Assembly (NCBI GenBank): GCA_951406725.2 | Contig: OX597822.1 | Location: forward strand, 77,624,001-77,688,000 | Source: Octopus vulgaris | Taxonomy: Eukaryota | Reading direction: 5' to 3' | DNA length: 64,000 bases | Part shown: piece after piece, positions 11,940 to 64,000 of the stretch | How the letters are laid out: each line of letters starts with the position of its first letter | Position numbering within the stretch: the first letter of the stretch is position 1 | Program-made: the position numbers and the translations under genes | Notes under the pieces: model-generated | Told to the model about the DNA's origin: nothing | Database searches by the model: none | What the model saw: the letters and a program-made list of their open reading frames with translations, nothing else

Positions 11940-12716
11940 TGACACACTGTGCTTGAGGAGACTTATTGAGTCAAGTAAAATCAAAATCGCAATCAGAATC
12001 TCAATCAAATTGAAATAAAAAATGGAAATTGTAGTCGTGGCCGATGCCAGTGCCACCTGACTGCCTCCCCGTGCTGGTGGCACGCAATAAGCACCATTCA
12101 TGCATAGGTCGATGCCAATCCTGCCTGACTGGCTACTCATACCTGTGGCAAGCAATAAGCACAATTCATGTGTGGGTTGATGCCAGTGCCACCTGACTGG
12201 CTCCCATGCTGGTGGCATGCAATAAGCACCATTCATGCATGGGTCGATGCCAGAGCTGCCTGACTGGCCCCCATGCTGGTGGCATGCAATAAGAAGATTC
12301 ATGCATGGGTCGATGCCAGTGCCGCCTGACTGGCTCCCATGCTGGTGGCATGCAGTAGGAACCATTCATGTGTGGGTTGTTGCCAGTGCTGCCTGGCTGG
12401 CTCCCCATGCCGAAAGGCATGTAAAAAGCACCATCCAAATGTGGTAAATGCCAGCCCTCCCTTCCCCCCACCCCAACTGGCTCCTGTGCCAGTGACAGGT
12501 AAAAAGCACCATCCGAATGTGGCCGATGCCAGTGCCGCCTGACTGGCTCACAGATGGTGGCATGTAAAAAGCATCTACTACACTCTCGGAGTGGTGGGCA
12601 TTAGGAAGGGCATCCAGCTGTAGATTGGAGCTTTGGTGCAGCCTCCTGCCTTACCAGTCCTCAGTTAAACCGTCCAACTCAGGCCAGCATGGAAAATGGA
12701 CATTAAATGATGATGA
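11940..12716 (+). mobile_element. RTE 3'-UTR fragment with internal ~58-bp tandem expansion
   Basis: Repeats of GATGCCAGTGCCNCCTGACTGGCTCCC...GGTGGCATGCA..AAGCACCAT, then the RTE tail. Other tail copies: ~6105-6610(-), 6670-6805(+), 7000-7135(+), 9120-9250(+), 35930-36300(-), 40440-40660(-), 52690-53040(-). Confidence 0.8.
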
Positions 12717-14477
12717 CTAAAGCCTTGTGAGTGGATTTGGTTGATGGAATCTGAAAGAAAACCCATCATATATATGTATGTGTGTGTGTGTATGCGTGTG
12801 CATATTTGTGGGTCTGTGTTTGTCCCCCCAACATTGCTTGACAACTGATACTAGTGCGTTTATATTCCTGTAACTTAGTGGTTTGGCAAAAGAAACCGAT
12901 AGAATAAGTACTAGGCTTACAAAGAATAAGTCCTGGGGTCGATTTGCTCGACTAAAGGTAGTGCTCCAGCATGGCCACAGTCAAATGACCGAAACAAGTA
13001 AAAGAATCCTTCTGAGTTTGTCATAGGTTAGCCTATACGTTGTTAAATTTCCTTTAGAAATTCTCCCTGAGGATATACACATTTCTCTGGTTTCGTATAT
13101 AGAATTTTATTTCTGAAATTAAAGAATTGTGTATGGAAACTGCTTCAGGTAGGAATCATCTGTATGTAAATTTTTTTCCATTACCTTCATTTTCTTATTT
13201 CAAAGTTATATATATATCTCATTACCCTGTCTAGCTCAAACATTTTTTTCGTTTAGACTTGTCTCCAGGTTCATAGCCACTCTGATTTTTCAATTTTTCA
13301 ATTTTTCGTTTAGTATTGTCTCCCGATTCATACTAACCCATTTGCTAGCTCACGATTAACAGAACCTCTTTACTCAGCTACGGTGTTATATTAGCTATCA
13401 ATAATGATATTCCCTCTGATTTTTCTGATTTTCAAACCTATTTATCTAATGTTTATTTATCGACAATGCCGTCCCCAGTCAAATTCCCTCACACCGCTTA
13501 TTGTCACGTGTCCCTTGACCTCTCTCTCTAACTAACCCTATCTCTCTCTCGCTATGTTCCCCCCTTCCCATAACCATCATCGCCATGGTCCTCTATGCCC
13601 CCCCCCCCACTCCCCAAAACCATCATCGCCATACATAAAAGAGCGATCGCATTTATCGTTAACCCCACTCGCTTCAAAATATTGAAAGAATACGCACAGA
13701 TCATGAATGGCTAAAAGTTAAGTGAATCGTCCAACCTCGCTACGACTACCTTCTTTCTTGCACTTATCCTTATTCTGTCTCTATTCTTCAATTTCCATCT
13801 CATTGTATTGTCACTCATTCTTTCAGTATTCCCTCATTACCCTGTCTAGCTCAAACATTTTTTTCGTTTAGACTTGTCTCCAGGTTCATAGCCACTCTGA
13901 TTTTTCAATTTTTCGTTTAGTATTGTCTCCCGATTCATACAAACCCATTTGCTAGCTCACGATTAACAGAACCTCTTTACTCAGCTACGGTGTTATATTA
14001 GCTATCAATAATGATATTCCCTCTGATTTTTCTGATTTTCAAACCTATTTATCTAATGTTTATTTATCGACAATGCCGTCCCCAGTCAAATTCCCTCACA
14101 CCGCTTATTGTCACGTGTCCCTTGACCTCTCTCTCTAACTAACCGTATCTCTCTCTCGCTATGTCCCCCCTTCCCATAACCATCATCGCCATGGTCCTCT
14201 ATGCCCCCCCTCCCCAAAACCATCATCGCCATACATAAAAGAGCGATCGCATTTATCGTTAACCCCACTCGCTTCAAAAATTTTGTTCTCGAGTTACTGT
14301 TCATTTGCGTTGTGAGAAAATTGCTGCCTTCATTTAAGAGAGTTCGGATTTGTGCTACTATTGTTTGTGCTAACTGTTTTGAACAGTGCCCGTTGTAAAA
14401 CGGTAATTTTCGCCCTACGGGGCAGAAAATTTGTATTACCTGTATTTTTGTTACCTTCGAGGTAATTTTTTTTTGAA

Positions 14478-15901
14478 ATGGAGTTCGACTTGACGTCGAA
14501 GGATGATTTTCCCGTGATGGGAAAAAGTGAAAATAAGGATAAACAAGTACCCAAACAGTCATTCTCGGCCGCGGTGGGCGGCGCCATGATGGATGTCGAA
14601 TTCAAAATTGAACAATTGTATGAATTCAGGAATCTAGTAAAAGTGGAAGGAGGCGAAATAAGGCTTGTACCGCCGCAGGCAAAAGTACAAGAGATCAAAG
14701 AAAGAATTGTGATTTACAAGGTATATAGCTTCAAAGAAAAGAAGATTATGGATGTGAAGAACGAAATTGTCGAGAAGTGCCTGTCCCCGGTGTGGGACAA
14801 AATTCGTCATGTCGTGAGAGGTGCACGCAGTGCTACGGTCGAGGCGCACTTTGACACGGCAGAGGTGGCGAGAGAGGTGTCGTCGTTGACCCTTAAAAAC
14901 GACGACATCATGCTGCTACCCTCGTACATGGGGAAGCGTACTGCTAAGTTACTAGTAGAAGACATACCCAGAGGGTACGACATCATGTGGGTAGCAGCGG
15001 CAGTCCTGCACAACATTGAACGTGAAATATCAATACTGCAAATGAGAAGGAAAGAGGTGGTACGGTGGAAGGGCCAGACCCTGGAGCTCCTCGTGCAGGC
15101 GGAGAACAAAATCCTAGAAAACCTGCCCGACAGAATCTTTAATGAGGACGGTACGTCCATGAGAGTTTCGGTAGAGGGACGTAGACCCAGATGCTTCAAG
15201 TGTGGAGAGAAGGGTCACGTCCGATCCAATTGTATTAAAAAGAAAAAAACAGAAGAAGCGCCTCCTCAAAGTGTCCCTATCACTGAAGGGGAGGAAACAG
15301 GAAAAAACAACAAAAAGACGAAGACAAGTACGGAAACAAAAACAGACAACACAGAACTAATGGACTACACACAAGTCACTCATAAAAGAAAAAAGAGAAT
15401 ACCCAGGACTCCCCTCCCCAAACAAGGAAAAAAACAGCAAACACAGCAGACACACACATCAAGCAAATCCCCCAACCCTACCCCCATGGCACTGTTTTCA
15501 TTGGAAAACAGTTTGCCAAGCCCCACCCCATAAAACAAGACATAAAAAAGTGCTTACAGAAGAACGAGAGGATAATAGCTTTCGATGAGAAAAATGAAAA
15601 AGTATATAAGTGTTGCAAATTCTCAAGATTTGTACTGTACAGTAGAGCCACAGATGTAAAAGCAACCGCTCGCTTCGCCAAGGTAGGGGAGGACGAGTGG
15701 AAAGAGGAGGTTCTTCAGGAACATCTGAGGAACCGTCTAATAAGAGACGTAACCAAAGAGGTTATGGAGGGCAAACTAATAATAACCCCGGCAACCACAC
15801 CCACCCAGAGCCCAGTGGCAACGCCGGTCAAGAGCCCTGCAGCAGCGGAAGAAGGGGAAGCAGGCAGACTTAAACTGTCATGCTCCCTTTCACAACCGTG
15901 A
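14478..15901 (+). CDS. Tx1-like ORF1 (gag-like, CX2CX4HX4C zinc knuckle); one apparent frameshift near 15480
   Basis: ORF 14478-15533 contains CFKCGEKGHVRSNC. An overlapping open frame (HGTVFIGKQFAKPHPIKQD...SLSQP*) continues to TGA at 15899-15901, just before ORF2. Confidence 0.82.
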
Positions 15902-15929
15902 GTACTTTTATGTTTCTCTCTCACCCACA

Positions 15930-18900
15930 ATGGCTAAGCTGGGTTGTATAAATGTACGTGGAATGGGGTCGAAACGGAAACAAATTTGTTTCCTGAACGA
16001 CCTCACAACACACGGTGTAGATATTGCTATTGCAACCGAGTCCAAGATGAGCGAGACCCAAGCGTTCTCGCCTCTTCTAAATGGTTTTGAGAAATTTATT
16101 TCTCCTAGCCGAGGAAGAGGCAGAGGCGTGGCAGTCTTCATCAGGAAGAGCTTGGACTTGCAGGTAAGTACTGTCTTTCTGGACCCAGAAGGCAGGCTGG
16201 TTGTCCTGGATGTGACTCACGTAAGTAAACAGTCCTTCAGGTTGGTAGCTGTCTACGCCCCGAACGAGGGTAGACAGACGGGTTTTTTTCGGAACCTGGA
16301 GCCCTTTTTAGCGACGTCGAAAACAGTAATCCTAGTAGGGGACTTTAACACTGTCCTTGAAGCGCACATCGACAATGTTGGCTCAACCAATAGGAAGGGG
16401 AACCCTAGCCTCAAGGGTCTACTAGAGAGCTTTGATCTAGTGGACCGTTACCGACTGGATGAGCCGAGCGTTCCACAGTGGACGTGGAGTAACAACGACG
16501 GCTCACACAGATCGTATCTAGATAGGATATTTATTAAGAAAAGAGATAAGGATACGTTTAGTTGTCCACAATTTCATATTGTACCTTACTCGGATCACAA
16601 ATTTGTGACGTGTGAGGTGCAATTGGACAAGTGTCATAGACAGGGACCCGGGTACTGGAAGCTGAACAAGGCTATTTTGAATTGTGAAGACTTCCGTACC
16701 CGGATTAAGGTGTTAGTTCAGAGGGCATTGTGTGGCGCCATCATTAACAATAGATGGTGGCACGCCCTCAAAAGAGCCATTCGTTTAGAGTCCGTTAGAT
16801 TTAGCAATCAGCTAAGGATAGATAGGGCTAGTCTAGAGGGCGATTTAGTTAAGAATCTAGACGAGGCAATGGAAGCTGGCTCTGCATCCGGAGTGTTGGC
16901 GGCAAGGACGGTATTGTACCGCCACCTTAACTCCAAACACGAAGGTTGCAGAGTCAGAGCTAAGCTGCGCGCTGGGAAACGAGAAGGTATTAACGTGGCC
17001 GGATGGGCCCGTCGTGTGGAGAGTCAGAGAGGCAACAGAGCCTCAATCAAATCTTTGACTGACGAACAGGGACAAAAGATCTATGGACAGGAGGAGATGC
17101 AAAAGTTTCTTCACCAGCATTTCGCTCGCGTGTTCGGGGGTGGTGGTTCGCTGGATCGGGGAGGGCCTTAAAGGACTTCCTAGCCGGCGGACCGCGGCTC
17201 GCGGGGCGTGAGGTGGAGTGCTGTGAAGGAGCGATCACTCCCGCGGAGATAAGGGAAATACTGGCCGGATGCGCCGGGGAGAAGTCGCCGGGGTTGGATG
17301 GTCTGCCCTATGAGTTTTACCAAAGTATGCCGGACTTGTTCGGGGAATACTGGCGGGCGTCTACACGAACTGGCAGCAGAATGGGAGAATTCCCAGTTCT
17401 GTAAGCCGGGGAGTGGTGACGCTAATCCAGAAAGACCCGAGCAAGGGGGATAACATCAGTAACTACAGGCCCATAACTCTACTTAATGTAGAGTTAAAGA
17501 TTTTGGCCAAGGTGTTGGCAAAAAGGTTGACGGTTGTCGTGGAGAAACTTGTAGGGAGAGCACAGACATGTGCAATTCCAGGCAGGTCGATCCAGGACAA
17601 CCTTCACCTTATACGCTATACCTTAGATAGGGTGGGTAAATTAGCCGGCAAAGGCGGGGTAATGGTCCATTTAGACCAAAGTAAAGCCTTCGATAGGGTA
17701 GACCATGGGTACCTGGCGACGGTCCTCGAAGCGGCTGGGCTGGGCCCTGTATTTCGCGGGTGGATCTCCGCTATGTATAGCGGCATCAAGTCCACCGTCC
17801 AGATAAACGGTTACCTAACGGAACCGTTTTCGATCGAGTGTTCAGTGCGTCAGGGGTGCCCCTTGTCACCACTTTTGTACGTATTGGCTCTTGAGCCATT
17901 GCTGCGAAAGTTGGAGAGGCTGGGGAGTAACTCGGATGAAATCGGAGGTGGGAGGACGGTTACTGCTTATGCGGATGACGTCACCCTCATCGTGTCCAAA
18001 GAGGCCCAACTACCTTGTGTAGAGGAGGCTATCAGAGGATACGAGGCGGTGGCAGGAGCAAAGGTTAACAAGGACAAATCGGTTGGCTTGCGCCTCGGCA
18101 CCTGGAGGAGCAAGTCGATATCGTCCAGTGTCGTGGGACACTGGACGGATGGCCCTGTTAAGTTGCTGGGAGTTTGGTTCGGGCCAGACTCCCAAACGGA
18201 GAAGAACTGGAGCGAGGTGACAAGCAAGGTGGAAGCCATAGTACGGACCTGGTCCGGAAGGTTTCTGTCCTTGAAAGGAAAGGCGGAGGTGGTGCAGATG
18301 TTCATTGCATCTGTAATCACCTACCGCCTGACCGTTGTCCCTTGCCCCGATTCATGGCTTAACAAGTTGGAGCGAATCCTTTTCCGCTTTTTGTGGAAAG
18401 GAGGAAGGCCACTTGTGAGGCGCTCCGTTTGCTGCCAGGAACCGTTAAAGGGTGGGCTAGGAATGCCTTGGTTGATGATGCGCAGACATGCGTTGAGGCT
18501 AAGGCATCTCTGGCACCACCTGGAGGGTGATAAGGTGTGGAGTCCGCTGGCAGGGGGATTTTTCCCGAGACCGGCCTCCTTAGTGAATTTTAAACCCGGT
18601 TACATCAAAAGATGGAAACTGACTCCATGGCAAAAGGAGTGCCGACAGGCACTCACGCTGATCCACAAGGCGGGCAAGGCCGGCTGCGGAAATACCACCT
18701 CGGTATTTTATAGAGGGCTGGTAGAGGCAAAAAACGACGACGTCCTAGGAGGGGCTCTGGGGTTTGATGAAGACCAGCTTGCCAACCTGTTTAAAAAACT
18801 TTCAGGTCGGGGTATTTGGATAATTTCCAAAGATCCCTGGCCTGGCAGTGCTATAGGAATGCTTTACCTGTTCGCGAGAAGTTATCGCGGCACGGAGTTT

Positions 18901-19316
18901 CAGTGCCACCGACGTGTCCAAGGTGCGAGTTGGACGATGAAACCGTCCAGCACGCTTTTGTTCACTGTCGGAAGTTGTCCGACTTGATAAGTTACGCAGA
19001 ACACGTGTTATCGCATCTGGGACGAGTACAGCTGTCGGCTGAGTCTATGATTAAGATGATACCGCCAACTGGACTCTCGAAGGAAGGTGAGGCATGTTTT
19101 CACTGCACGGTTGCAGTAGTAAAGGAATGCATGTGGAGAACGAGAATGGAAGGAGCCGCGATAGGATCCTTTGTCTCCGGCCCCAGCTTGCTCACTTACT
19201 TCAGATATCATCTGAAGAGCAAAATGGGGCTGGAAAAGAGGATCTTACCGCGGGGTGTGTATGAGAAAAGATGGAAGGAAGTGGAAAGAAAGGTGGGTGT
19301 CAGAAACCCAGCTTGA
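15930..19316 (+). CDS. Tx1-like ORF2: AP endonuclease, reverse transcriptase, C-terminal CCHC; broken by ~3 frameshifts (~17160, ~17345, ~18795)
   Basis: APE motifs CINVRG, VGDFN, YLDRIF, SDH; RT motifs SPGLDG, YRPITLLN, DQSKAFD, RQGCPLSP, AYADD, KLLGV; CPRCELDDETVQHAFVHC. Pieces are ORFs 15930-17171, 17213-17404, 17413-18987 and 18816-19316. Confidence 0.92.
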
Positions 19317-22300
19317 CCATGGAGGAGAGAGAGGAAGTGGAAGCTGCAGGGCCTCATAAATTGCCGGGGTGTAAAAACTCCAGTGAGACTACAAGTTCAT
19401 CTACTGTTGTTTGTTATACTGGTTATGCAAAGGATATTATTTTATAATGAATCTAAACAAAATTTTTAATCGAATCTCTTAAATGTTTTTTGTATGTATG
19501 TCCTGTATTTGTCCTTCTGTGTATCGATTTTCATAATCTTAATAAAGAAATACCCACTCGCTTCAAAATATCTAAAGAATACGCACAGATCATGAATGGC
19601 TAAAAGTTAAGTGAATCGTTCAACCTCGCTACGACTACCTTCTTTCTTGCACTTATCCTTACTCTTTCTCTATTCTTCAATTTCCATCTCATTGTATTGT
19701 CCCTCATTCTTTCAGTATTCCCTCATTACCCTGTCTAGCTCAAACATTTTTTTCGTTTAGACTTGTCTCCAGGTTCATAGCCACTCTGATTTTTCAATTT
19801 TTCAATTTTTCGTTTAGTATTGTCTCCCGATTCATACTAACCCATTTGCTAGCTCACGATTAACAGAACCTCTTTACTCAGCTACGGTGTTATATTAGCT
19901 ATCAATAATGATATTCCCTCTGATTTTTCTGATTTTCAAACCTATTTATCTAATGTTTATTTATCGACAATGCCGTCCCCAGTCAAATTCCCTCACACCG
20001 CTTATTGTCACGTGTCCCTTGACCTCTCTCTCTAACTAACCCTATCTCTCTCTCGCTATGTTCCCCCTTCCCATAACCATCATCGCCATGGTCCTCTATG
20101 CCCCCCCACTCCCCAAAACCACCATCGCCATACATAAAAGAGCGATCGCATTTATCGTTAACCCCACTCGCTTCAAAATATCTAAAGAATACGCACAGAT
20201 CATGAATGGCTAAAAGTTAAGTGAATCGTTCAACCTCGCTACGACTACCTTCTTTCTTGCACTTATCCTTACTCTTTCTCTATTCTTCAATTTCCATCTC
20301 ATTGTATTGTCCCTCATTCTTTCAGTATTCCCTCATTACCCTGTCTAGCTCAAACATTTTTTTCGTTTAGACTTGTCTCCAGGTTCATAGCCACTCTGAT
20401 TTTTCAATTTTTCGTTTAGTATTGTCTCCCGATTCATACTAACCCATTTGCTAGCTCACGATTAACAGAACCTCTTTACTCAGCTACGGTGTTATATTAG
20501 CTATCAATAATGATATTCCCTCTGATTTTTCTGATTTTCAAACCTATTTATCTAATGTTTATTTATCGACAATGCCGTCCCCAGTCAAATTCCCTCACAC
20601 CGCTTATTGTCACGTGTCCCTTGACCTCTCTCTCTAACTAACCCTATCTCTCTCTCGCTATGTTCCCCCCTTCCCATAACCATCATCGCCATGGTCCTCT
20701 ATGCCCCCCCCCACTCCCCAAAACCATCATCGCCATACATAAAAGAGCGATCGCATTTATCGTTAACCCCACTCGCTTCAAAATATCTAAAGAATACGCA
20801 TAGATCATGAATGGCTAAAAGTTAAGTGAATCGTTCAACCTCGCTACGACTACCTTCTTTCTTGCACTTATCCTCACTCTTTCTCTATTCTTCAATTTCC
20901 ATCTCATTGTATTGTCCCTCATTCTTTCAGTATTCCCTCATTACCCTGTCTAGCTCAAACATTTTTTTCGTTTAGACTTGTCTCCAGGTTCATAGCCACT
21001 CTGATTTTTCAATTTTTCAATTTTTCGTTTAGTATTGTCTCCCGATTCATACTAACCCATTTGCTAGCTCACGATTAACAGAACCTCTTTACTCAGCTAC
21101 GGTGTTATATTAGCTATCAATAATGATATTCCCTCTGATTTTTCTGATTTTCAAACCTATTTATCTAATGTTTATTTATCGACAATGCCGTCCCCAGTCA
21201 AATTCCCTCACACCGCTTATTGTCACGTGTCCCTTGACCTCTCTCTCTAACTAACCCTATCTCTCTCTCGCTATGTTCCCCCCTTCCCATAACCATCATC
21301 GCCATGGTCCTCTATGCCCCCCCCCACTCCCCAAAACCATCATCGCCATACATAAAAGAGCGATCGCATTTATCGTTAACCCCACTCGCTTCAAAATATC
21401 TAAAGAATACGCACAGATCATGAATGGCTAAAAGTTAAGTGAATCGTTCAACCTCGCTACGACTACCTTCTTTCTTGCACTTATCCTTACTCTTTCTCTA
21501 TTCTTCAATTTCCATCTCATTGTATTGTCCCTCATTCTTTCAGTATTCCCTCATTACCCTGTCTAGCTCAAACATTTTTTTTCGTTTAGACTTGTCTCCA
21601 GGTTCATAGCCACTCTGATTTTTCAATTTTTCAATTTTTCGTTTAGTATTGTCTCCCGATTCATACTAACCCATTTGCTAGCTCACGATTAACAGAACCT
21701 CTTTACTCAGCTACGGTGTTATATTAGCTATCAATAATGATATTCCCTCTGATTTTTCTGATTTTCAAACCTATTTATCTAATGTTTATTTATCGACAAT
21801 GCCGTCCCCAGTCAAATTCCCTCACACCGCTTATTGTCACGTGTCCCTTGACCTCTCTCTCTAACTAACCCTATCTCTCTCTCGCTATGTTCCCCCCTTC
21901 CCATAACCATCATCGCCATGGTCCTCTATGCCCCCCCCACTCCCCAAAACCATCATCGCCATACATAAAAGAGCGATCGCATTTATCGTTAACCCCACTC
22001 GCTTCAAAATATCTAAAGAATACGCACAGATCATGAATGGCTAAAAGTTAAGTGAATCGTTCAACCTCGCTACGACTACCTTCTTTCTTGCACTTATCCT
22101 CACTCTTTCTCTATTCTTCAATTTCCATCTCATTGTATTGTCCCTCATTCTTTCAGTATTCCCTCATTACCCTGTCTAGCTCAAACATTTTTTTCGTTTA
22201 GACTTGTCTCCAGGTTCATAGCCACTCTGATTTTTCAATTTTTCAATTTTTCGTTTAGTATTGTCTCCCGATTCATACTAACCCATTTGCTAGCTCACGA

Positions 22301-25300
22301 TTAACAGAACCTCTTTACTCAGCTACGGTGTTATATTAGCTATCAATAATGATATTCCCTCTGATTTTTCTGATTTTCAAACCTATTTATCTAATGTTTA
22401 TTTATCGACAATGCCGTCCCCAGTCAAATTCCCTCACACCGCTTATTGTCACGTGTCCCTTGACCTCTCTCTCTAACTAACCCTATCTCTCTCTCGCTAT
22501 GTTCCCCCTTCCCATAACCATCATCGCCATGGTCCTCTATGCCCCCCCCACTCCCCAAAACCATCATCGCCATACATAAAAGAGCGATCGCATTTATCGT
22601 TAACCCCACTCGCTTCAAAATATCTAAAGAATACGCACAGATCATGAATGGCTAAAAGTTAAGTGAATCGTTCAACCTCGCTACGACTACCTTCTTTCTT
22701 GCACTTATCCTCACTCTTTCTCTATTCTTCAATTTCCATCTCATTGTATTGTCCCTCATTCTTTCAGTATTCCCTCATTACCCTGTCTAGCTCAAACATT
22801 TTTTTCGTTTAGACTTGTCTCCAGGTTCATAGCCACTCTGATTTTTCAATTTTTCAATTTTTCGTTTAGTATTGTCTCCCGATTCATACTAACCCATTTG
22901 CTAGCTCACGATTAACAGAACCTCTTTACTCAGCTACGGTGTTATATTAGCTATCAATAATGATATTCCCTCTGATTTTTCTGATTTTCAAACCTATTTA
23001 TCTAATGTTTATTTATCGACAATGCCGTCCCCAGTCAAATTCCCTCACACCGCTTATTGTCACGTGTCCCTTGACCTCTCTCTCTAACTAACCCTATCTC
23101 TCTCTCGCTATGTTCCCCCCTTCCCATAACCATCATCGCCATGGTCCTCTATGCCCCCCCCCCACTCCCCAAAACCATCATCGCCATACATAAAAGAGCG
23201 ATCGCATTTATCGTTAACCCCACTCGCTTCAAAATATCTAAAGAATACGCACAGATCATGAATGGCTAAAAGTTAAGTGAATCGTTCAACCTCGCTACGA
23301 CTACCTTCTTTCTTGCACTTATCCTTACTCTTTCTCTATTCTTCAATTTCCATCTCATTGTATTGTCCCTCATTCTTTCAGTATTCCCTCATTACCCTGT
23401 CTAGCTCAAACATTTTTTTACGTTTAGACTTGTCTCCAGGTTCATAGCCACTCTGATTTTTCAATTTTTCAATTTTTCGTTTAGTATTGTCTCCCGATTC
23501 ATACTAACCCATTTGCTAGCTCACGATTAACAGAACCTCTTTACTCAGCTACGGTGTTATATTAGCTATCAATAATGATATTCCCTCTGATTTTTCTGAT
23601 TTTCAAACCTATTTATCTAATGTTTATTTATCGACAATGCCGTCCCCAGTCAAATTCCCTCACACCGCTTATTGTCACGTGTCCCTTGACCTCTCTCTCT
23701 AACTAACCCTATCTCTCTCTCGCTATGTTCCCCCCTTCCCATAACCATCATCGCCATGGTCCTCTATGCCCCCCCCACTCCCCAAAACCATCATCGCCAT
23801 ACATAAAAGAGCGATCGCATTTATCGTTAACCCCACTCGCTTCAAAATATCTAAAGAATACGCACAGATCATGAATGGCTAAAAGTTAAGTGAATCGTTC
23901 AACCTCGCTACGACTACCTTCTTTCTTGCACTTATCCTTACTCTTTCTCTATTCTTCAATTTCCATCTCATTGTATTGTCCCTCATTACCCTGTCTAGCT
24001 CAAACATTTTTTTTCGTTTAGACTTGTCTCCAGGTTCATAGCCACTCTGATTTTTCAATTTTTCAATTTTTCGTTTAGTATTGTCTCCCGATTCATACTA
24101 ACCCATTTGCTAGCTCACGATTAACAGAACCTCTTTACTCAGCTACGGTGTTATATTAGCTATCAATAATGATATTCCCTCTGATTTTTCTGATTTTCAA
24201 ACCTATTTATCTAATGTTTATTTATCGACAATGCCGTCCCCAGTCAAATTCCCTCACACCGCTTATTGTCACGTGTCCCTTGACCTCTCTCTCTAACTAA
24301 CCCTATCTCTCTCTCGCTATGTTCCCCCTTCCCATAACCATCATCGCCATGGTCCTCTATGCCCCCCCCCCACTCCCCAAAACCATCATCGCCATACATA
24401 AAAGAGCGATCGCATTTATCGTTAACCCCACTCGCTTCAAAATATCTAAAGAATACGCACAGATCATGAATGGCTAAAAGTTAAGTGAATCGTTCAACCT
24501 CGCTACGACTACCTTCTTTCTTGCACTTATCCTTACTCTTTCTCTATTCTTCAATTTCCATCTCATTGTATTGTCCCTCATTCTTTCAGTATTCCCTCAT
24601 TACCCTGTCTAGCTCAAACATTTTTTTTCGTTTAGACTTGTCTCCAGGTTCATAGCCACTCTGATTTTTCAATTTTTCAATTTTTCGTTTAGTATTGTCT
24701 CCCGATTCATACTAACCCATTTGCTAGCTCACGATTAACAGAACCTCTTTACTCAGCTACGGTGTTATATTAGCTATCAATAATGATATTCCCTCTGATT
24801 TTTCTGATTTTCAAACCTATTTATCTAATGTTTATTTATCGACAATGCCGTCCCCAGTCAAATTCCCTCACACCGCTTATTGTCACGTGTCCCTTGACCT
24901 CTCTCTCTAACTAACCCTATCTCTCTCTCGCTATGTTCCCCCCTTCCCATAACCATCATCGCCATGGTCCTCTATGCCCCCCCCACTCCCCAAAACCATC
25001 ATCGCCATACATAAAAGAGCGATCGCATTTATCGTTAACCCCACTCGCTTCAAAATATCTAAAGAATACGCACAGATCATGAATGGCTAAAAGTTAAGTG
25101 AATCGTTCAACCTCGCTACGACTACCTTCTTTCTTGCACTTATCCTTACTCTTTCTCTATTCTTCAATTTCCATCTCATTGTATTGTCCCTCATTCTTTC
25201 AGTATTCCCTCATTACCCTGTCTAGCTCAAACATTTTTTTTCGTTTAGACTTGTCTCCAGGTTCATAGCCACTCTGATTTTTCAATTTTTCAATTTTTCG

Positions 25301-26597
25301 TTTAGTATTGTCTCCCGATTCATACTAACCCATTTGCTAGCTCACGATTAACAGAACCTCTTTACTCAGCTACGGTGTTATATTAGCTATCAATAATGAT
25401 ATTCCCTCTGATTTTTCTGATTTTCAAACCTATTTATCTAATGTTTATTTATCGACAATGCCGTCCCCAGTCAAATTCCCTCACACCGCTTATTGTCACG
25501 TGTCCCTTGACCTCTCTCTCTAACTAACCCTATCTCTCTCTCGCTATGTTCCCCCCTTCCCATAACCATCATCGCCATGGTCCTCTATGCCCCCCCCACT
25601 CCCCAAAACCATCATCGCCATACATAAAAGAGCGATCGCATTTATCGTTAACCCCACTCGCTTCAAAATATCTAAAGAATACGCACAGATCATGAATGGC
25701 TAAAAGTTAAGTGAATCGTTCAACCTCGCTACGACTACCTTCTTTCTTGCACTTATCCTCACTCTTTCTCTATTCTTCAATTTCCATCTCATTGTATTGT
25801 CCCTCATTCTTTCAGTATTCCCTCATTACCCTGTCTAGCTCAAACATTTTTTTCGTTTAGACTTGTCTCCAGGTTCATAGCCACTCTGATTTTTCAATTT
25901 TTCAATTTTTCGTTTAGTATTGTCTCCCGATTCATACTAACCCATTTGCTAGCTCACGATTAACAGAACCTCTTTACTCAGCTACGGTGTTATATTAGCT
26001 ATCAATAATGATATTCCCTCTGATTTTTCTGATTTTCAAACCTATTTATCTAATGTTTATTTATCGACAATGCCGTCCCCAGTCAAATTCCCTCACACCG
26101 CTTATTGTCACGTGTCCCTTGACCTCTCTCTCTAACTAACCCTATCTCTCTCTCGCTATGTTCCCCCCTTCCCATAACCATCATCGCCATGGTCCTCTAT
26201 GCCCCCCCCACTCCCCAAAACCATCATCGCCATACATAAAAGAGCGATCGCATTTATCGTTAACCCCACTCGCTTCAAAATATCTAAAGAATACGCACAG
26301 ATCATGAATGGCTAAAAGTTAAGTGAATCGTTCAACCTCGCTACGACTACCTTCTTTCTTGCACTTATCCTCACTCTTTCTCTATTCTTCAATTTCCATC
26401 TCATTGTATTGTCCCTCATTCTTTCAGTATTCCCTCATTACCCTGTCTAGCTCAAACATTTTTTTCGTTTAGACTTGTCTCCAGGTTCATAGCCACTCTG
26501 ATTTTTCAATTTTTCAATTTTTCGTTTAGTATTGTCTCCCGATTCATACTAACCCATTTGCTAGCTCACGATTAACAGAACCTCTTTACTCAGCTAT

Positions 26598-29500
26598 GGT
26601 GCACCCGCCCTCCCACCCCCACCACGCATGCCGGAAGTTCCTATTCTCTTCCATTCCGGGGTTGCTTCCCATGAAGACTGCAAATGCTCTCACCATCCCT
26701 ACCCCTCCCTACCCCTAGTCTCGACCTATGTAAGGTAATGTTCATACAGTGCAAAATATGAAAGGCTAGCGTTATGCAGGTTGTACTGAAGGCTACTTTA
26801 CTACTTCATTTTTTGCACATGAATTCTGCCAAATGCGAGCTTTCTTTTCAGGTACACGAAGCTACTGTCCACCGTCCCAGGGTCTCTAGAGCCCATGCCT
26901 TCCACACCCTCAGGGTTGGCACTCTGAAAGGTAGGTCTGGTGAGATAGTCGAGATGCTTGAACGGAGATGTGTGGATATATGTTGCATGCAAGAAATAAG
27001 GTGGAGAGGAGGATCAGCTAGGTTCCTCACAGGCAAGGAACGCAGGTACAAGATTTTCTGGGCAGGGAATACTGACGGGGTTGGTGGCGTGGGTATACTT
27101 ATCGCTGAGAAATGGGTAGATAAAGTAATTGAGGTAATCAGAGTAAGTGACAGAATACTTAAGATTAGATTAGTGCTTCATCATAGTTTAGCAACCATTA
27201 TATCAGCCTATGCTCCTCAGTCGGGGCTACCCGATGGACAGAAAGACCGATTCTATGACACTCTACTGCAGACTACCTCATTGACGAACGACAGAGACCT
27301 TATCTTTGTGGCTGGTGACTTCAATGGTCACGTTGGACGACATGCTGGGGGCTTCCATGGCGTACATGGAGGCTACGGCTATGGCTCCCGCAACGAGGAG
27401 GGAACCAGGCTGCTGGAGTTCTGCGATGCAAATAATCTTATGATTTGCAACACTAACTTCAGGAAACCTACCAGCCACCTAGTCACTTACCAATCGGGCC
27501 AACATACCAGCCAAATTGACTACATCCTTACAAGGCAAAGGGAGAGATGGCTGCTTATAAATGCCAAAACCTTCCCAGGTGAAGAATGTACCCCACAACA
27601 TAGACTGGTAGTTAGTGACTTTAGGATCAGGACTAGGAGGACAACCAGAAGACGACAAATATGGAGAAGAAGGATCTGGAAGCTTAAAGATCCTGCAAAT
27701 GGACAGAGATTTAGGGACATATTACTTGAAGCCTCTGACGAAGTAGAAGGGGATAGAGCATCACAGGGGGTAGAAGACAGCTGGACGTTTCTAAGGGACA
27801 ACCTGCTGAGAGCCACTGACCAGATCTGTGGCTGGTGCAAAGTCCCCTCTCGACCTAGAATAACGTGGTGGTGGAACAATATTGTAGACAGGGCTATTAG
27901 AGAAAAGAGACAGGCTTGGAAGGTCTGGAAAAATGGGGGTAGCAGGGAATTGTATCAGACTGCCAAAAGAGAAGCTAGGAGACAGGTTTATTTAGCCAGA
28001 GGGGAAGCAGATAAGAAAAAATTTGCCAATGTTCTGCGCCGTGAGGACCAAAGACTGGAGGTGTTTCGTGTTGCAAGACAGTGTGTGAGAGAGAATCGTG
28101 ATGTGGTAGGAGAGAAGTGTGTTCGCATGGAAGATGGTTCACTTGCGCTAAATGAGGATGCAAAGAGAGAGGTTTGGAGATGCCACTATGAAAGGTTGCT
28201 GAATGAAGAAAATGAATGGGATAAAGAGAGTCTGCCGAATGTTGACCCAACAGAGGGACCAGCTATCCGAGTTGATAGTTCTGTGGTAGCTAAGGCAATT
28301 AGAAGCATGAAGACAGGGAAAGCCCCAGGCCCATCAGGAATCACTGCAGAGATGCTCAAAATGTCTGGTAGTGTCGGCTATAGCCTAGTCACCCATATAG
28401 TTAATCAGGTGATACACAAAGGGGTCATACCCAATGACTGGTGTAGCAGTATAATAGTCAACTGCTACAAAGGTAAAGGTGATGCCCTAGATACAAACAA
28501 CTACAGAGGTATCAAGCTGTTGGACCAGGTGATGAAGGTTACGGAGAGGGTCATAGCCCAACTAATTAGAGAGAGAGTTAGTTTAGATGAGATGCAGTTT
28601 GGGTTTGTGCCAGGGAAAAGTACTACTGATGCTATATTCCTGGTAAGGCAGCTGCAGGAGAAATACCTAGCCAAAGATAAGCCCCTGTACCTGGCTTTTG
28701 TTGACATGGAGAAAGCCTTCGACAGGGTCCCCGATCCCTTATCTGGTGGGCAATGAGAAAACTAGGGATAGATGAATGGTTAGTGAGAGCTGTGCGGGCC
28801 ATGTATAGGGACGCCGCTAGTAGGGTGAGGGTTGGAAATGAGTACAGTGAAGAATTCCGGGTAGAGGTAGGGGTCCACCAAGGCTCAGTACTCAGCCCCC
28901 TCCTATTTATCATAGTCCTCCAGGCAATAACGGAGGAATTCAAGACAGGATGCCCTTGGGAGCTCCTCTATGCTGATGACCTTGCTCTAATTGCTGAGTC
29001 GCTATCAGAACTGGAGGAGAAGTTTCAGGTGTGGAAACAAGGATTAGAATCGAAGGGCCTCAGAGTCAATCTAGCTAAAACCAAAGTCGTAATCAGTAGG
29101 AAGGTAGACAAATCACAAACACCTTCAGGTAGATGGCCCTGCTCGATCTGTAGAAAAGGTGTAGGTAGAAACTCTATAAGATGCACCAAGTGTAAGCTAT
29201 GGACACATAAGAGATGCAGCAATGTCAAAGGAAGGCTAACTAGGAAGATGGTTTTTGTATGTGGCAGATGCTCAGGAACAATAAACACTGAAAATGCTCT
29301 GAGACCAACTTCTGTCACTTTCCAGGGAGAAAAACTAGAAATAGTTGATAGTTTCCGTTACCTAGGTGACCAAGTCAGCAGCGGGGGCGGGTGTGCTGAA
29401 AGTGTAACTGCTAGAGTAAGAATAGCTTGGGCAAAGTTCAGAGAGCTCTTACCTCTGCTGGTGACAAAAGGCCTCTCGCACAGAGTGAAAGGCAGACTGT

Positions 29501-30537
29501 ATGATGCGTGTGTACGAACAGCCATGCTACATGGCAGTGAAACATGGGCCGTGACTGCTGAGGATATGCGTAAGCTCGCTAGAAATGAAGCCAGTATGCT
29601 CCGATGGATGTGTAATGCCAGTACTCACACTCGGCAGAGTGTAAGTACCTTGAGAGAAAAGCTGGACCTAAGAAGCATCAGTTGTGGTGTGCAAGAGAGA
29701 CGTTTGCGCTGGTATGGTCATGTGGCGAGAATGGATGAAGATAGTTGTGTGAAAAAGTGCCACACCCTAGCGGTTGAGGGAACCTGTGGAAGAGGCAGAC
29801 CCAGGAAAACCTGGGACGAGGTGGTGAAGCACGACCTTCGAACTTTAGGTCTCACCGAGGAAATGACTAGAGACCGAGACCTCTGGAAGTGTGCTGTGCG
29901 CGAGAAGACCCGGCAGGACAAGTGAGTCCACAACCCGTGGCCTTCTACATGGGATGGAGCCAGCCTACGTATGCATACCTTCCCTTCTTGGGACACAAAA
30001 CTCTACTTGTGAAGACGTGTTGAGGCAAGTGAGGATCAGAATCGAAATCGATCAATGGAAATTGCGGATGTGCTACCAGTGCCGGTGGCATGTCGAAACT
30101 CTGCTTGTGAAGACCCATTGAGGCAAGTGAGGATCAGAATCGAAATCGATCAATGGAAATCGATCAATGGAAATTGCAGATGTGTTACCAGTGCCGGTGG
30201 CATGTAAGAGAACCTTCCGTTTCGCGACCGTTGCCAGCACCGCCCCGTTTCGTGTTCGTTGCCAGCCTCGCCTGGCCCTCGTGCCGGTGGCACATAAAAA
30301 ACACCATCCGTTCGTGGCCGTTTGCCAGCTCTGGCTGGCACCAGTGCGGGTGGCACGTAAAAAGCACCCACTACACTCACGGAGTGGTTGGCGTTAGGAA
30401 GGGCATCCAGCCGTAGAAACACTGCCAGATTTGACTGGGCCTGATGAAGCCTTCTGGCTTCACAGACCCCAGCAGAACCGTCCAACCCATGCTAGCATGG
30501 AAAACGGACGCTAAATGATGATGATGATGATGATGAT
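26598..30537 (+). mobile_element. RTE-clade LINE, near full length, ending in (TGA)n
   Basis: Single APE-RT polyprotein; 3' UTR ends CCGTCCAACCCATGCTAGCATGGAAAACGGACGCTAAA(TGA)n, a tail shared with many truncated copies in the window. Confidence 0.92.
26774..29925 (+). CDS. RTE polyprotein (APE + RT + internal PHD-type finger); one frameshift at ~28730
   Basis: MQEIRW, SAYAPQ, AGDFNGH, SQIDY, PQHRLV, KAPGPSG, NYRGIKLL, DMEKAFD, HQGSVLSP, LYADD, FRYLG, RLRWYGHV, RGRPRKTW; ORFs 26774-28756 and 28753-29925. Confidence 0.93.
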
Positions 30538-35732: not shown

Positions 35733-36670
35733 TGTGTGTTTATTGGGGGCTGGTGGAATCGTTAGCACGCTAGATGGTATTTCACCCGTCATTATGTCCT
35801 GAGTTCAAATTCCACTGAGGTCAACTTTGCCTTTTATCCTTTCAGGGTCAATAAATTAAATACCAGTGAAACACTGGGATTGATGTAATCGACTAGCCTC
35901 CTCACGCCAAATGTCAGGTCTTGTGCCTATATCATCATCATCATCGTTTAACGTCTGTTTTCCATGCTGGCATGGCTTCGGTGGTTAAACTAAGTTTTGG
36001 AAACCCAGTGGCTGCACCAGGCTCCAGTCTGATCTGGCAATGTTTCTACAGCTAGATGCCCTTCCTAATGCCAACTACTCCAAGAATGTAGTAGGTGCTT
36101 TTTACATGCCACCAGCAAGGTAGTCAGTCAGGGGGTACTGACATCGGCCACATTTGGATGGTGCTTTTTACGTGTCACCGGCAAGAAAGCCAGTCAAGGG
36201 GCACTGGCATCAGCCACATTCTGATGGTGCTTTTTATGTGCCACTGGCATCGGCCATGTTCGGATTGTGCTTTTTATGTGCTACCGGCCCAGAAACCAGT
36301 AAGGCAGCCCTACATACATGATAGGCTTCCACACAGTTTCCGTCTACTAAATTCCTTCACAAGGCATTAGCCCAACCCAAGGTACTGTACAGTGGAACTG
36401 AAACTGAAACTCATTGTTGCCAAACAAGCTTCCTAACCACATACGTATACCTACGCCTACATGTAAGTTCCAATGCACAAATCCTCACTCATGCCTGAAT
36501 GAGTCAATAGAACATATATTAATGTACAGACATTTATCAATACAGACACACATATATTAGGAACATATTGATTTAAAACTTTAAAAAGCAAATGAATCTT
36601 TGGGGATATTGTGGGTGAAATATTATGTTTTACTTGAGCCTGTGGAGATTTTTAGTTAAATATCTAGAAG

Positions 36671-59870: not shown

Positions 59871-60421
59871 AGTCCAGAAAAATAGGACGAATGCTGCCAT
59901 TGATTAGCTCCAAGAGGCCATCGCCTCTAGTTAGCTATGTGACACATGAACCTGTGTCCATTATAACCATCGAACAGGGGAGGTTAGCCACTTCCCCTTG
60001 CTAGTCTAGCATCTACAGACTAGTTTCAGGGTATTTGCCCCTTATCAATATACAGCAGCCTAACCAAGCAGGCATTGCTACTGACCGTCTGTTCGAAGGA
60101 TTATTTACCAAAATTCCATGGAATACATCCACTGGTTTTCAAAAATGGAAATATTAATATTTCTAAAGGAGACTACGGCAGCGGTAAATAACACTTCAAA
60201 CAGACGGTCAGTAGTGACGCCTGCTTGGTTCAGCTGCTCTACATCGATAAGGGGCAAATATCCTGAAACTAGTCTGTAGATGCCAGACCAGCAAGGGGAA
60301 GCAGCTCACCTCCCCTGTTCGAAGGTTATAATTAACACAGGTTCATGTGTCACATAGCTAGCTAGAGGTGATGGCCTCTTGGAGCTAATCAACGGCAGCA
60401 TTCGCCCTATTTTTTTGGACT
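59871..60421. mobile_element. ~228-bp inverted-repeat element; each arm carries a variant hammerhead motif
   Basis: Arms 59871-60098 and 60194-60421; CTACA-TCGATAA-GGGG(CAAATA)TCCT-GAAAC(TA)GTC-TGTAG at 60239-60279. Confidence 0.85.
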
Positions 60422-61137
60422 ATCAAACAGTCCAACCCATGCCAGTACAGAACATGGATGTTAAATGTTGCTGCTGCTGCTGATGATGATTATGATGTCT
60501 TTGGTTACATACTAAATTTGGTGAACGTTTATACCATTTATTACCAGCTTTGAAGAGGAAACGTCTGCATTGCTACCCAATCAATACTGCTATATACCCA
60601 GTCATGTCTATGGATATATATTCTGTTTTTGTGAGGACTGGCCAGCAGGAAATGATGTAGCCGATTATTTCTTTATGCTGATTAGATAATCTTTACTCAA
60701 CATTAGCCTCTTATTTATTTCCTTTATCTTTCATAGATTTTTTTTTTTTTTTTTTTGTTTTTACTCATGGCTAGCCATTGATCTTGTGTAGCTAAAGCCA
60801 GACATCCCATTTTTATCTTTAGTTCAGTAATTTCTAGCTATTGTTGTGCTCTTTTATTGAATCACTTCTTCTCTATCCAGTCATCTTAGAGCAGATTTCT
60901 GACCAGGGAGAGATTTTTTTTTCTTCAATAGTTTTATTGTAAAGTTCCACCTGGATTTTATCTCATTTCTATTTTTCATTTCTTTTTTCTTAAACTTTTC
61001 ACTTGTTTTGTCTTTAATCAAGCATATTGTGTATGTGTGTATAATTAGCTTTATTGTTTCCTTAATTAGGGAAAAAATGTATACATTTTTTCTTGCTCCT
61101 CTGCTTCTTTCTTACACTAATCAGCCAACTACACTGC

Positions 61138-61808
61138 ATCATCATCATCATCATCATCGTTTAACGTCCGTTTTCCGCGCTAGCACGGGTTGGACGGTTT
61201 CGACCGGGGTCTGGGGAGCTCGGGACTGCCCCAGGCTCCAATCTAGTCTGGCAGTGTTTCTACAGCTGGATGCCCTTCCTAACGCCAACCACTCCGCGAG
61301 TGTAGTGGGTGTTTTTTACGTGCCACCTGCACAGGTGCCAGAGGGGTCTGGCAACGGCCACGTTCGGATGGTGCTTTTTATGTGGGGGTGGTGCAGAAAT
61401 ATAGGGGAGCACCAGTGGGGAGGGGTGGTTCAGAGAAATGATGACAGGTTCTAGGCAAGTAGAACGTAGGATATCGAGAGAGGGGTAATGCATGGTGAAA
61501 TAGCGTATTGAAGAGGGGGGTTCGAAGAGTAGACACCTATAATGGTGGTGGGAGAAGCGACATCCGGTATAGATGGAGCAAAATATAGAGATATCCAGTA
61601 TTGGTGGTGGGGTGGGCAGGGCGGGTGAAGATACGAAGTTTGATTTTAGACGAATGAAGATAGATAGATAGATAGATAGAGAAATTAGATAGATAGAGAA
61701 ATTTGATAAATAGTTAGACAGATAGAGAAACATAAATAAATGGTAACCGAAGTGAAAATTAAGCATTCAACTTATCTGCACTCAGGACTACAGCTTGTAG
61801 ATGAATGA

Positions 61809-61840
<32 letters not shown>

Positions 61841-61909
61841 ACATATGTGTATTAGAGGGGACATACTTCAAGATGGCGCGAAGATACGAAGTTTGATTTT
61901 AGACGAATG

Positions 61910-61941
<32 letters not shown>

Positions 61942-64000
61942 GAAATTAGATAGATAGAGAAATTTGATAAATAGTTAGACAGATAGAGAAACATAAGAGG
62001 GAGTATCCGGTGTAGATGGTGAGAACAGTGTTCACCGGTATTGGTGGTGGCGGTGGGAGGGCGGGCGCACCGCGCATTGGGAGAAGATGAGGTTTTAGGC
62101 GGCAGAAAGAAGACAGGATTGAGATGAAATGCTTTGCGGTGTGTGAATAAGTTTTTGTGAGTGAAAGTTTTCATGCTTCTATGCTTCAGCTAGCATTTGA
62201 GACGAATGACAACGATAACGCTATTAGATGGGGATACAATAATAATAAGGCTTGCAAAAACAATGAAAAGAGGAAACAGGTCGGGAACTTAGCTGATGTT
62301 TTTCATCCTGCGGTATTGGCTAAGCCTGTGGAAGCGAGTGAAGGTGAGATATATACCGAGAGAGAGAGAGAGAGAGACAGTGAAAACAGAGGGAGAACCG
62401 ACACCACATAGCGAGAGAGAGAGAGACATAGTGACACCGCGCATTGGGAGAAGATGAGGTTTTAGGCGGCAGAAAGAAGACAGGATTGAGATGAAATGCT
62501 TTGCGGTGTGTGAATAAGTTTTTGTGAGTGAAAGTTTTCATGCTTCTATGCTTCAGCTAGCATTTGAGACGAAAGACAACGATAACGCTATTAGATGGGG
62601 ATACAATAATAATAAGGCTTGCAAAAACAATGAAAAGAGGAAACAGGTCGGGAACTTAGCTGATGTTTTTCATCCTGCGGTATTGGCTAAGCCTGTGGAA
62701 GCGAGTGAAGGTGAGATATATACCGAGAGAGAGAGAGAGAGAGACAGTGAAAACAGAGGGAGAACCAACACCACATAGCGAGAGAGAGAGAGAGAGAGAC
62801 ATAGTGACACCGCGCATTGGGAGAAGATGAGGTTTTAGGCGGCAGAAAGAAGACAGGATTGAGATGAAATGCTTTGCGGTGTGTGAATAAGTTTTTGTGA
62901 GTGAAAGTTTTCATGCTTCTATGCTTCAGCTAGCATTTGAGACGAAAGACAACGATAACGCTATTAGATGGGGATACAATAATAATAAGGCTTGCAAAAA
63001 CAATGAAAAGAGGAAACAGGTCGGGAACTTAGCTGATGTTTTTCATCCTGCGGTATTGGCTAAGCCTGTGGAAGCGAGTGAAGGTGAGATATATACCGAG
63101 AGAGAGAGAGAGAGAGAGACAGTGAAAACAGAGGGAGAACCGACACCACATAGCGAGAGAGAGAGAGAGAGAGACATAGTGACACCGCGCATTGGGAGAA
63201 GATGAGGTTTTAGGCGGCAGAAAGAAGACAGGATTGAGATGAAATGCTTTGCGGTGTGTGAATAAGTTTTTGTGAGTGAAAGTTTTCATGCTTCTATGCT
63301 TCAGCTAGCATTTGAGACGAAAGACAACGATAACGCTATTAGATGGGGATACAATAATAATAAGGCTTGCAAAAACAATGAAAAGAGGAAACAGGTCGGG
63401 AACTTAGCTGATGTTTTTCATCCTGCGGTATTGGCTAAGCCTGTGGAAGCGAGTGAAGGTGAGATATATACCGAGAGAGAGAGAGAGAGAGACAGTGAAA
63501 ACAGAGGGAGAACCGACACCACATAGCGAGAGAGAGAGAGAGAGAGACATAGTGACACCGCGCATTGGGAGAAGATGAGGTTTTAGGCGGCAGAAAGAAG
63601 ACAGGATTGAGATGAAATGCTTTGCGGTGTGTGAATAAGTTTTTGTGAGTGAAAGTTTTCATGCTTCTATGCTTCAGCTAGCATTTGAGACGAAAGACAA
63701 CGATAACGCTATTAGATGGGGATACAATAATAATAAGGCTTGCAAAAACAATGAAAAGAGGAAACAGGTCGGGAACTTAGCTGATGTTTTTCATCCTGCG
63801 GTATTGGCTAAGCCTGTGGAAGCGAGTGAAGGTGAGATATATACCGAGAGAGAGAGAGAGAGAGACAGTGAAAACAGAGGGAGAACCGACACCACATAGC
63901 GAGAGAGAGAGAGAGAGAGACATAGTGACACCGCGCATTGGGAGAAGATGAGGTTTTAGGCGGCAGAAAGAAGACAGGATTGAGATGAAATGCTTTGCGG
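61138..64000 (-). mobile_element. Putative non-autonomous RTE derivative: 5' tandem array + 5'-UTR homology + RTE 3' tail, no ORF
   Basis: On the minus strand: array (64000-62068), boundary motif matching 26598-26634, further 5'-UTR similarity at ~61630-61460, RTE tail 61385-61138. Confidence 0.7.
62068..64000 (-). repeat. Tandem array of ~373-bp monomers (>5 copies, runs off the window)
   Basis: CACCGCGCATTGGG starts at 62068, 62435, 62808, 63183, 63556 and 63929. Length variation is in the (GA)n tracts. Confidence 0.97.

Follow-up and report, generated by a model that had tools for sequence, protein, structure and literature searches.

Tandem 5′ units of RTE-type retroelements in Octopus vulgaris, likely promoters, and a probable deletion behind the resemblance between two of them

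The A-module of Dictyostelium TRE5-A is tandem, and Ty3 reportedly inserts at polymerase III start sites. A close described parallel for the DNA discussed here is rodent L1, the 5′ UTR of which is made, in mouse and rat, of tandem monomers (~200 bp in mouse, 650 bp in rat) with a tether to the ORF, and diverges or is replaced between families, according to the part of PMC5381506 covered here. In Dictyostelium, TRE5-A.1 is a LINE that moves autonomously and has a promoter module at its 5′ end, TRE5-A.2 is mobilized in trans and TRE5-A ORF1 binds TBP in vitro (PMC5391098, in part). Target-specific Tx1 elements, Tx1L and Tx1-Mar, use fixed sites in other transposons (PMC4494074, in part). The octopus has an RTE of its own on record, the brain-expressed RTE-2_OV (PMC9115989, in part). 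For the layout described below we found no RTE or octopus precedent in the papers searched, and in the part of PMC13282606 covered the arrays are undescribed.

Our subject is a window, the whole stretch of DNA analyzed, of 64,000 nucleotides from Octopus vulgaris (contig OX597822.1, positions 77,624,001 to 77,688,000). It holds two tandem repeats on opposite strands, with units of 612 bp (family A) and 373 bp (family B). An initial annotation had noted eight short motif blocks shared by the two units, and all eight are found on the strands and in the cyclic order it gave (Table 1). The words held exactly in common are CACTCGCTTC (10 nt), ATTGTAT, TGCTAGCT, CACACCGC and TCTCTCTCTCGCTATGT (17 nt). 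Units of the 612-mer measure 595 to 614 bp by the spacing of CACTCGCTTC, those of the 373-mer 367 to 375 bp. The reading we have come to, with good if not complete confidence, is that both repeats are the 5′ tandem units of RTE-type retroelements, likely polymerase II promoters, and that the 373-bp unit is short of a 113-base module, most likely through deletion.

Table 1. Features of the window, in order of position; blocks are numbered as in the initial annotation.
Feature	Position	Strand	Remarks
Tandem repeat, 86 bp	6313-6569		
Tandem repeat, 67 bp	12042-12434		resembles repeats within RTE 3′ tail
612-bp array, 5′ part	13218..14279	+	begins mid-unit, after TA run
L1/Tx1-type LINE in A array	14280..19552	+	three broken frames; 16-nt target duplication
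612-bp array, 3′ part	19553..26601	+	11.5 units
A unit, TATA-like CATAAAAG	20738	+	CCCACTCGCTTCAAAA 30 nt downstream at 20768; site spans 20738..20783
A unit, CCCACTCGCTTCAAAA, 16 nt	20768	+	predicted start site; duplicated by Tx1-type LINE
A unit words AATACGCA (20793), GCTAAAAGTTAAG (20814), TTGCACTTAT (20862)	20793..20871	+	
Array-ORF tether	26598..26773	+	junction motif; ETS-like CCGGAAGT (26631)
RTE-type LINE	26762..30537	+	one endonuclease-RT ORF; frameshift near 28705-28756; PHD-like finger; 3′ tail
PHD-like finger after RT domain of RTE ORF	29256-29390		protein 28705-29925, residues 146-189; Pfam score 22.9 bits, under cut-off of 24
(GAT)n end of RTE-type LINE tail	~30516-30537	+	
Tandem repeat, 66/40 bp	36094-36288		resembles repeats within RTE 3′ tail
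Inverted repeat pair, ~190 bp	59890-60010 / 60220-60410		MITE-like
RTE-like 3′ tail of 373-mer element	61137..61384	-	ends (GAT)n; 85% over 247 bp to 30291-30537
Non-coding body of 373-mer element	61385..62042	-	TATC and CT runs; second junction-like copy
Junction motif at array end, GC-box/CACCC-box-like	62043..62072	-	common with RTE at 26598-26625
Family B array, 373-bp units	62068..64000	-	heads 5′ end of non-coding retroelement
Block 7, CACACCGC	62136..62143	-	absent from C and E; order relative to CGGTG anchor broken; likely chance
Block 6, TGCTAGCT	62188..62195	-	exact in A, A2, A-old, B, C, E; absent from D, G, H
Block 5, ATTGTAT	62234..62240	-	absent from C and E; likely chance
Block 4, TTGCAAG	62251..62257	-	inherited core in A, B, C, E; D differs at one base
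Block 3, AGCTAAG	62288..62294	-	inherited core; exact in 8 of 9 compared units
Block 2, AATACCGCAG	62308..62317	-	putative fusion point; 113 nt of E unit missing (C-rich box, TATAAAA, predicted start)
Block 1, CACTCGCTTC	62331..62340	-	aligns to segment ~95 nt upstream of family E predicted start; initiator-like
Block 8, CT run and CGCTATGT	62406..62422	-	exact in A, B, C; partly low complexity

The 612-bp array runs through a GC-rich junction motif into a LINE that we take to be an RTE from its layout and from sequence motifs typical of the clade; it has the features of that clade, namely a single ORF with AP endonuclease and RT, and a microsatellite tail. At 19 of 20 loci the 612 array is joined to this same RTE at one junction, with 5′ starts that are scattered; at the remaining locus Tx1 has split the array and left half of it. 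Scatter at the 5′ end combined with a constant 3′ end is what reverse transcription from the 3′ end usually leaves behind. Family A arrays contain anything from 0.1 to at least 13.8 units before a tether of ~170 bp; GC is ~0.40 over the array, the units being AT-rich and not of the CpG-island type. Beyond the GC-box-like junction stands an ETS-like (C/A)GGAAGT (26631-26638); D, E, G and H have it too, and it is absent at B and C junctions.

The 373-bp array amounts to 5.5 units in total, running 108 bp past the window end, and the element that it heads is non-coding. Its junction motif was seen at 17 of 19 373-array loci and has 172 exact copies in the genome, against none for a reversed control. 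Rfam and tRNA scans of the window gave no match to a tRNA-, 5S- or 7SL-type head. Clear non-repetitive target duplications were found for one of 43 B and C elements (8 nt), most of the 43 lying in TA runs. We also looked at the 373-mer as a possible RNA structure and found its fold no better than those of shuffles (z -0.2). This value, the lack of Rfam matches in the window, the hammerhead ribozyme included, and the presence of linear RTE-type tails make it barely credible that the units are self-cleaving or structured RNAs of the retrozyme kind, with monomers produced by ribozyme cleavage.

The junction served for a survey of 126 entries, 4 loci being counted twice. RT accompanies 38 of 39 A entries and all 8 D entries; a tail without RT, in the stretch examined, is what follows in 32 of 32 B entries and 30 of 31 C entries (C units are ~505 bp), and likewise in family F. 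Three further families that carry RT (E, G and H) came to light next to Tx1 insertions. F (L162, L167, L127) has a 277-bp unit with the junction and tail in common. At one locus (L023, G000:C4:74.51-74.52 Mb) a B element and a C element, separated by 3.5 kb, point in opposite directions with their backs to each other, and at another (L159/L310, G000:C9:5.71-5.72 Mb) a C unit is already present 11.8 kb upstream of the junction, so that the array may be at least that long.

Such long arrays invite the thought that they are satellites, or passive repeats picked up by RTEs, with no promoter role. They reach at least 14 to 19 units (at least 18.7), and their units diverge by 0.1 to 0.4% within loci as against 0.4 to 1.3% between loci (0.1% against 1.3% in A), which argues for local expansion, just as a satellite would have it. 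The unit bodies are, moreover, mostly unalignable between families, though RT differs by only 0.11 to 0.38 at four-fold sites. Yet nearly all examined arrays end at an element junction, and the TATA spacing, Tx1 landing sites and 5′-end excess described below point to starts inside the units. We therefore give passive repeats very little credence; the annotation was right to set neutral satellites aside, both arrays being parts of RTE-type retroelements that end at the same junction motif. The mismatch between low RT divergence and unalignable units means either that units turn over faster than the ORF changes neutrally or that families exchange them.

How good is the resemblance between the 612-mer and the 373-mer? 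Taken alone, the two units resemble each other little more than chance would allow. Their local alignment has a score of 35, where dinucleotide shuffles give 21±2 and none of 300 scored as high; 10-nt block shuffles equalled it 4 times in 300, 25-nt block shuffles 89 times in 300, and under two other local scorings 60 and 10 of 300 shuffles were as good. No shuffle in 300 matched the global alignment, a comparison biased by phasing on the common motif. The best colinear chain of exact 7-mers was equalled by 2 of 150 dinucleotide shuffles, 49 of 150 block shuffles and 3 of 224 genomic pieces; once simple runs were masked the counts became 88 of 150, 107 of 150 and 58 of 224, so the excess rests on the CT run. 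Colinearity beyond shuffled controls, on which the annotation had staked its case, is thus present in the unmasked chain under dinucleotide shuffling and falls to chance in the masked one. Order is also broken at one point: CACACCGC precedes the CGGTG of the array end in the 373-mer but follows it in the 612-mer. Outside the core to be described next, A and B have no significant similarity (15/300, 56/300).

Profile tests link the two units through their sisters. A core of ~130 bases is common to A, B and their five sisters, the unit families C, D, E, G and H, running in the alignment from a TATA-like box through an initiator-like word, AAA(T/C)AC and AGCTAAG to TTGCA. Core profiles were built without the target family, and G and H were phased by Tx1 sites and so independently of A and B; D was phased by eye, and E is represented by a 385-bp piece below a Tx1 site. 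A profile of G and H finds the core of A at 8.9 bits (equalled by 0/200 dinucleotide shuffles, 0/200 block shuffles and 0/140 genomic pieces) and that of E at 15.8 bits (0/200, 0/200 and 0/220), and a profile of B, C and E finds that of G at 8.9 bits (0/200, 1/200). Trained on A, D, G and H, the profile recognizes B at 9.2 bits with a narrow training window (0/200, 0/200, 0/228), and C also passes; with a wider window B scores 3.1 bits (5/300, 9/300, 16/228). Direct tests between A and B fail (A and A2 on B, 19/300; B, C and E on A, 35/200), pairwise scores of core against rest are mostly at chance level between distant families, and for family F the core profiles fail (245/300, 151/200). The common ancestry first proposed is nevertheless supported, since both arrays carry one junction motif on RTE-type retroelements and family-blind profiles find the core at the right phase and strand. 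Judging from what survives of the units, the core is probably under selection.

A second LINE tells us where units may start. The insertion in the A array has an ORF1 with a CCHC knuckle, an ORF2 with endonuclease, RT and zf-RVT, and a site preference, all features of the Tx1 clade; we label it L1/Tx1-type so as to cover both L1 and Tx1. At the A unit site CCC(C)ACTC it is found in four loci, at CCCACTCGCTTCAAAA in the window and at three more. Across 27 paired sites of 11 target types (two sites were dropped because their duplications were shorter than 12 nt), a TATAWAW with at most one mismatch stands 30 nt before the Tx1 duplication in 8 of the 11 types, against a background of 0.10 to 0.12, and is absent there in 3, the -32..-28 window having been picked after inspection of the data. 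One G copy has a shortened spacer: its Tx1 site shifts and the 30 nt are kept. The predicted start of A units accordingly placed would fall at CCCCACTCG. Array 5′ ends lie within 20 nt of an initiator-like A in 16 of 88 cases where 7.4 are expected (A 6/33, B 2/26, C 5/23, D 3/6); the ±20 window was likewise picked after the data had been seen, and the count omits edge-cut and two Tx1-cut arrays. The suggestion that the blocks mark promoter sites therefore gains from the Tx1 landing sites, the excess of 5′ ends and a start common to C copies that we come to below, while promoter activity itself we infer.

Some Tx1 candidates and oddities deserve a record. Specificity of Tx1 for CACTCGCTTC was rejected, the targets being many, and a seemingly unique target turned out to be a repeat with 46 matches. 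Tx1 copies stack in tandem, at least nine of them near G000:C9:59.2 Mb (loci L056-L085, L176-L236), and several have 10 to 28 extra 5′ bases resembling the start of another target. The promoter-like repeat at L272 (G000:C4:112.47 Mb), which contains CCAAT words and TATAAAAG, has 46 matches, and pairs of these ~5.2 kb apart suggest further Tx1 insertions. The commonest Tx1 target, family J (L059, L085, L197, L210-L221), has no TATA at -30; at its beginning it resembles a related Tx1 5′ end, and it closes with a hairpin and CTAG, Helitron-like by eye, and its copies may not be independent insertions. Contigs from 7 runs, whose RNA nature is a guess, span the junction as well as the greater part of the A unit. 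Contig ends near the predicted start were rejected as starts, three of them sharing a 30-nt prefix that fits a graph branch. Contig ends at CCC runs with an adaptor that seems to be of the template-switch type look like strand-invasion artefacts.

The closest autonomous relative of the 373-mer is family E. Intact E units have 113 nt between CACTCGC...AGCCAATA and C(C)GCAGGATGAAAA, comprising a C-rich box, TATAAAA and the Tx1 site, and TATAAAA is present in 19 of the 19 E-type loci that have the upstream part. In B and C, whose main alignments to the E unit are 76 to 89% and 87 to 90% identical, respectively, 177 units have the fused form and none has the module. The C-to-E identity suggests that B and C are nested inside E. 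AC/CGC microhomology flanks the 113-nt module, and because all five autonomous families (A, D, E, G and H) bear a TATA-like box, loss in B and C is likelier than gain in E, a direction drawn from parsimony and microhomology. The opposite direction belongs to a view, close to that of the annotation, in which all eight blocks are orthologous and selected, the layout of B and C is ancestral, and E gained its TATA module by insertion or duplication. There is something to be said for it. To the eye, the segments before and after the TATA box of E look alike, which makes an old duplication possible; the profile of A, D, G and H does find both B and C with the narrow window; and the spacing fits, AATACGCA lying at +22 in both A and C units and AGCTAAG at +44 to +52 in A, B, C, G and H. 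We nonetheless think it improbable, given that only the non-coding B and C are without TATA, that microhomology marks the edges of the missing piece, that the masked chain is at chance and that close relatives do not keep blocks 5, 7 and 8.

With the deletion as the preferred reading, the eight blocks sort themselves into different kinds. Blocks 1 and 2 of the two units would be positionally non-equivalent, marking the predicted start in the 612-mer, and an upstream segment and fusion point in the 373-mer, so the most striking match between the repeats is likely a look-alike created by loss of the module, only part of the resemblance being inherited. TTGCA keeps to +75 to +114 in A, B, C and E units, and block 6 (TGCTAGCT) is possibly inherited as well; block 8 has 2 to 3 mismatches in older A units and 5 in the E fragment. 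That the eight blocks are conserved orthologous sites is thus not supported: two belong to an upstream segment and a deletion junction, and blocks 5 and 7 are missing from close relatives.

The scheme we favor would work as follows. Each intact unit would have a TATA box with a start 30 nt on, a transcript from one unit would include the promoters of all downstream units, so that new copies would keep promoters, much as rodent L1 does, and arrays would re-expand locally. B and C would be mobilized by RTE enzymes via the common tail. The deletion would have joined the upstream initiator-like CACTCGC to the inherited core (GATGAAAA, AGCTAAG, TTGCA) at a spacing close to that of the TATA-bearing families, which would account for blocks 1 and 2, and family C would likely have its start at this initiator-like word from upstream, which the deletion would have brought to 44 nt from AGCTAAG, the distance found in G.

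Five C copies that lie in unrelated flanking DNA all start at the fourth base (T) of the block 1 segment, which suggests a re-created start; the four of them that were measured have 0.7 to 7.9 units. A genome-wide pattern at the C phase gave 6 matches, namely 5 true 5′ ends and 1 substitution, none in family B; a control phase gave 1 match, an internal rearrangement, and no true 5′ end. Four of the five copies belonged to the set that prompted this test, and the control phase was a single one. On this footing one might speculate that the passenger lost its TATA box and start and rebuilt a TATA-less promoter, one deletion having set an initiator-like word at the right distance from GATGAAAA...AGCTAAG; we offer it tentatively. 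About equally plausible to us is a deletion as described, with the likeness of blocks 1 and 2 due to chance and B and C having no start of their own, read instead by transcription from flanking DNA. Family B has no 5′-end cluster, pyrimidine-rich strands yield chance 7- to 10-mers, and B and C are without the ETS-like word of autonomous junctions, all of which suits read-through. It sits less well with the single 5′ base of five C copies in differing flanks, and with families that are young and dispersed (B and C diverge by 1.2% and 0.4% between loci, respectively). Read-through is compatible with the rest of our preferred explanation.

Why might any of this matter? A LINE loses sequence upstream of its start at each copying, and chained TATA promoters would be one solution, here in an RTE-type element, with non-coding passengers built on the same promoter chain. 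If the rebuilt promoter is real, AGCTAAG would count among the core-promoter elements of cephalopods, as a downstream one that depends on spacing, the seven unit families would amount to a natural mutational scan, and the Tx1 landing sites to a genomic map of starts. The set supplies reporter material for cephalopod core promoters, TATA-bearing (A, E) and TATA-less (B, C), together with a candidate downstream element. There are two plainer lessons: repeats labelled satellites are, in this case, heads of retroelements, and a deletion can create a striking motif match between two repeats, which is a warning to anyone who compares them.

Set beside rodent L1 as described in the part of PMC5381506 covered, the arrays are alike in their variable number of tandem 5′ monomers and their tether. 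They differ in that the carrier is a one-ORF RTE-type element rather than a two-ORF L1, in that the units are AT-rich and TATA-bearing with no CpG island (judged from GC content), and in that at least five autonomous unit families coexist and non-coding passengers also bear arrays. RTE-related SINEs, in the part of PMC6007223 covered, resemble B in being non-coding, in having the 3′ end of the LINE in common and in their microsatellite end; unlike them, B has no tRNA, 5S or 7SL head, its head being a tandem array from the LINE's 5′ units. Within the same limits, the TRE5-A.1/TRE5-A.2 pair is like our RTE and its passenger, an autonomous LINE with a non-autonomous derivative, except that TRE5-A.2 retains ORF1 and targets tRNA genes, and the binding of TBP by TRE5-A ORF1 could serve as a model for the landing habit of Tx1 here (PMC5391098). 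RTE-2_OV is of the RTE class too (PMC9115989, in part), and the primer published for it has 31 exact matches in this genome; a link was rejected, the 5′ end being fixed at one base in 18 of 20 copies and tandem units occurring in 0 of 20. By eye, the 5′ end of those primer-matching copies (L237-L256) looks ribozyme-like. Unlike Tx1L and Tx1-Mar, in the part of PMC4494074 covered, and unlike Ty3, the Tx1-type element here appears, in targets unrelated to one another, to have its site set by how far it lies from a TATA box. What is new, compared with all of these, is the core held across families, the passenger families, and a deletion that would explain the best of the block matches.
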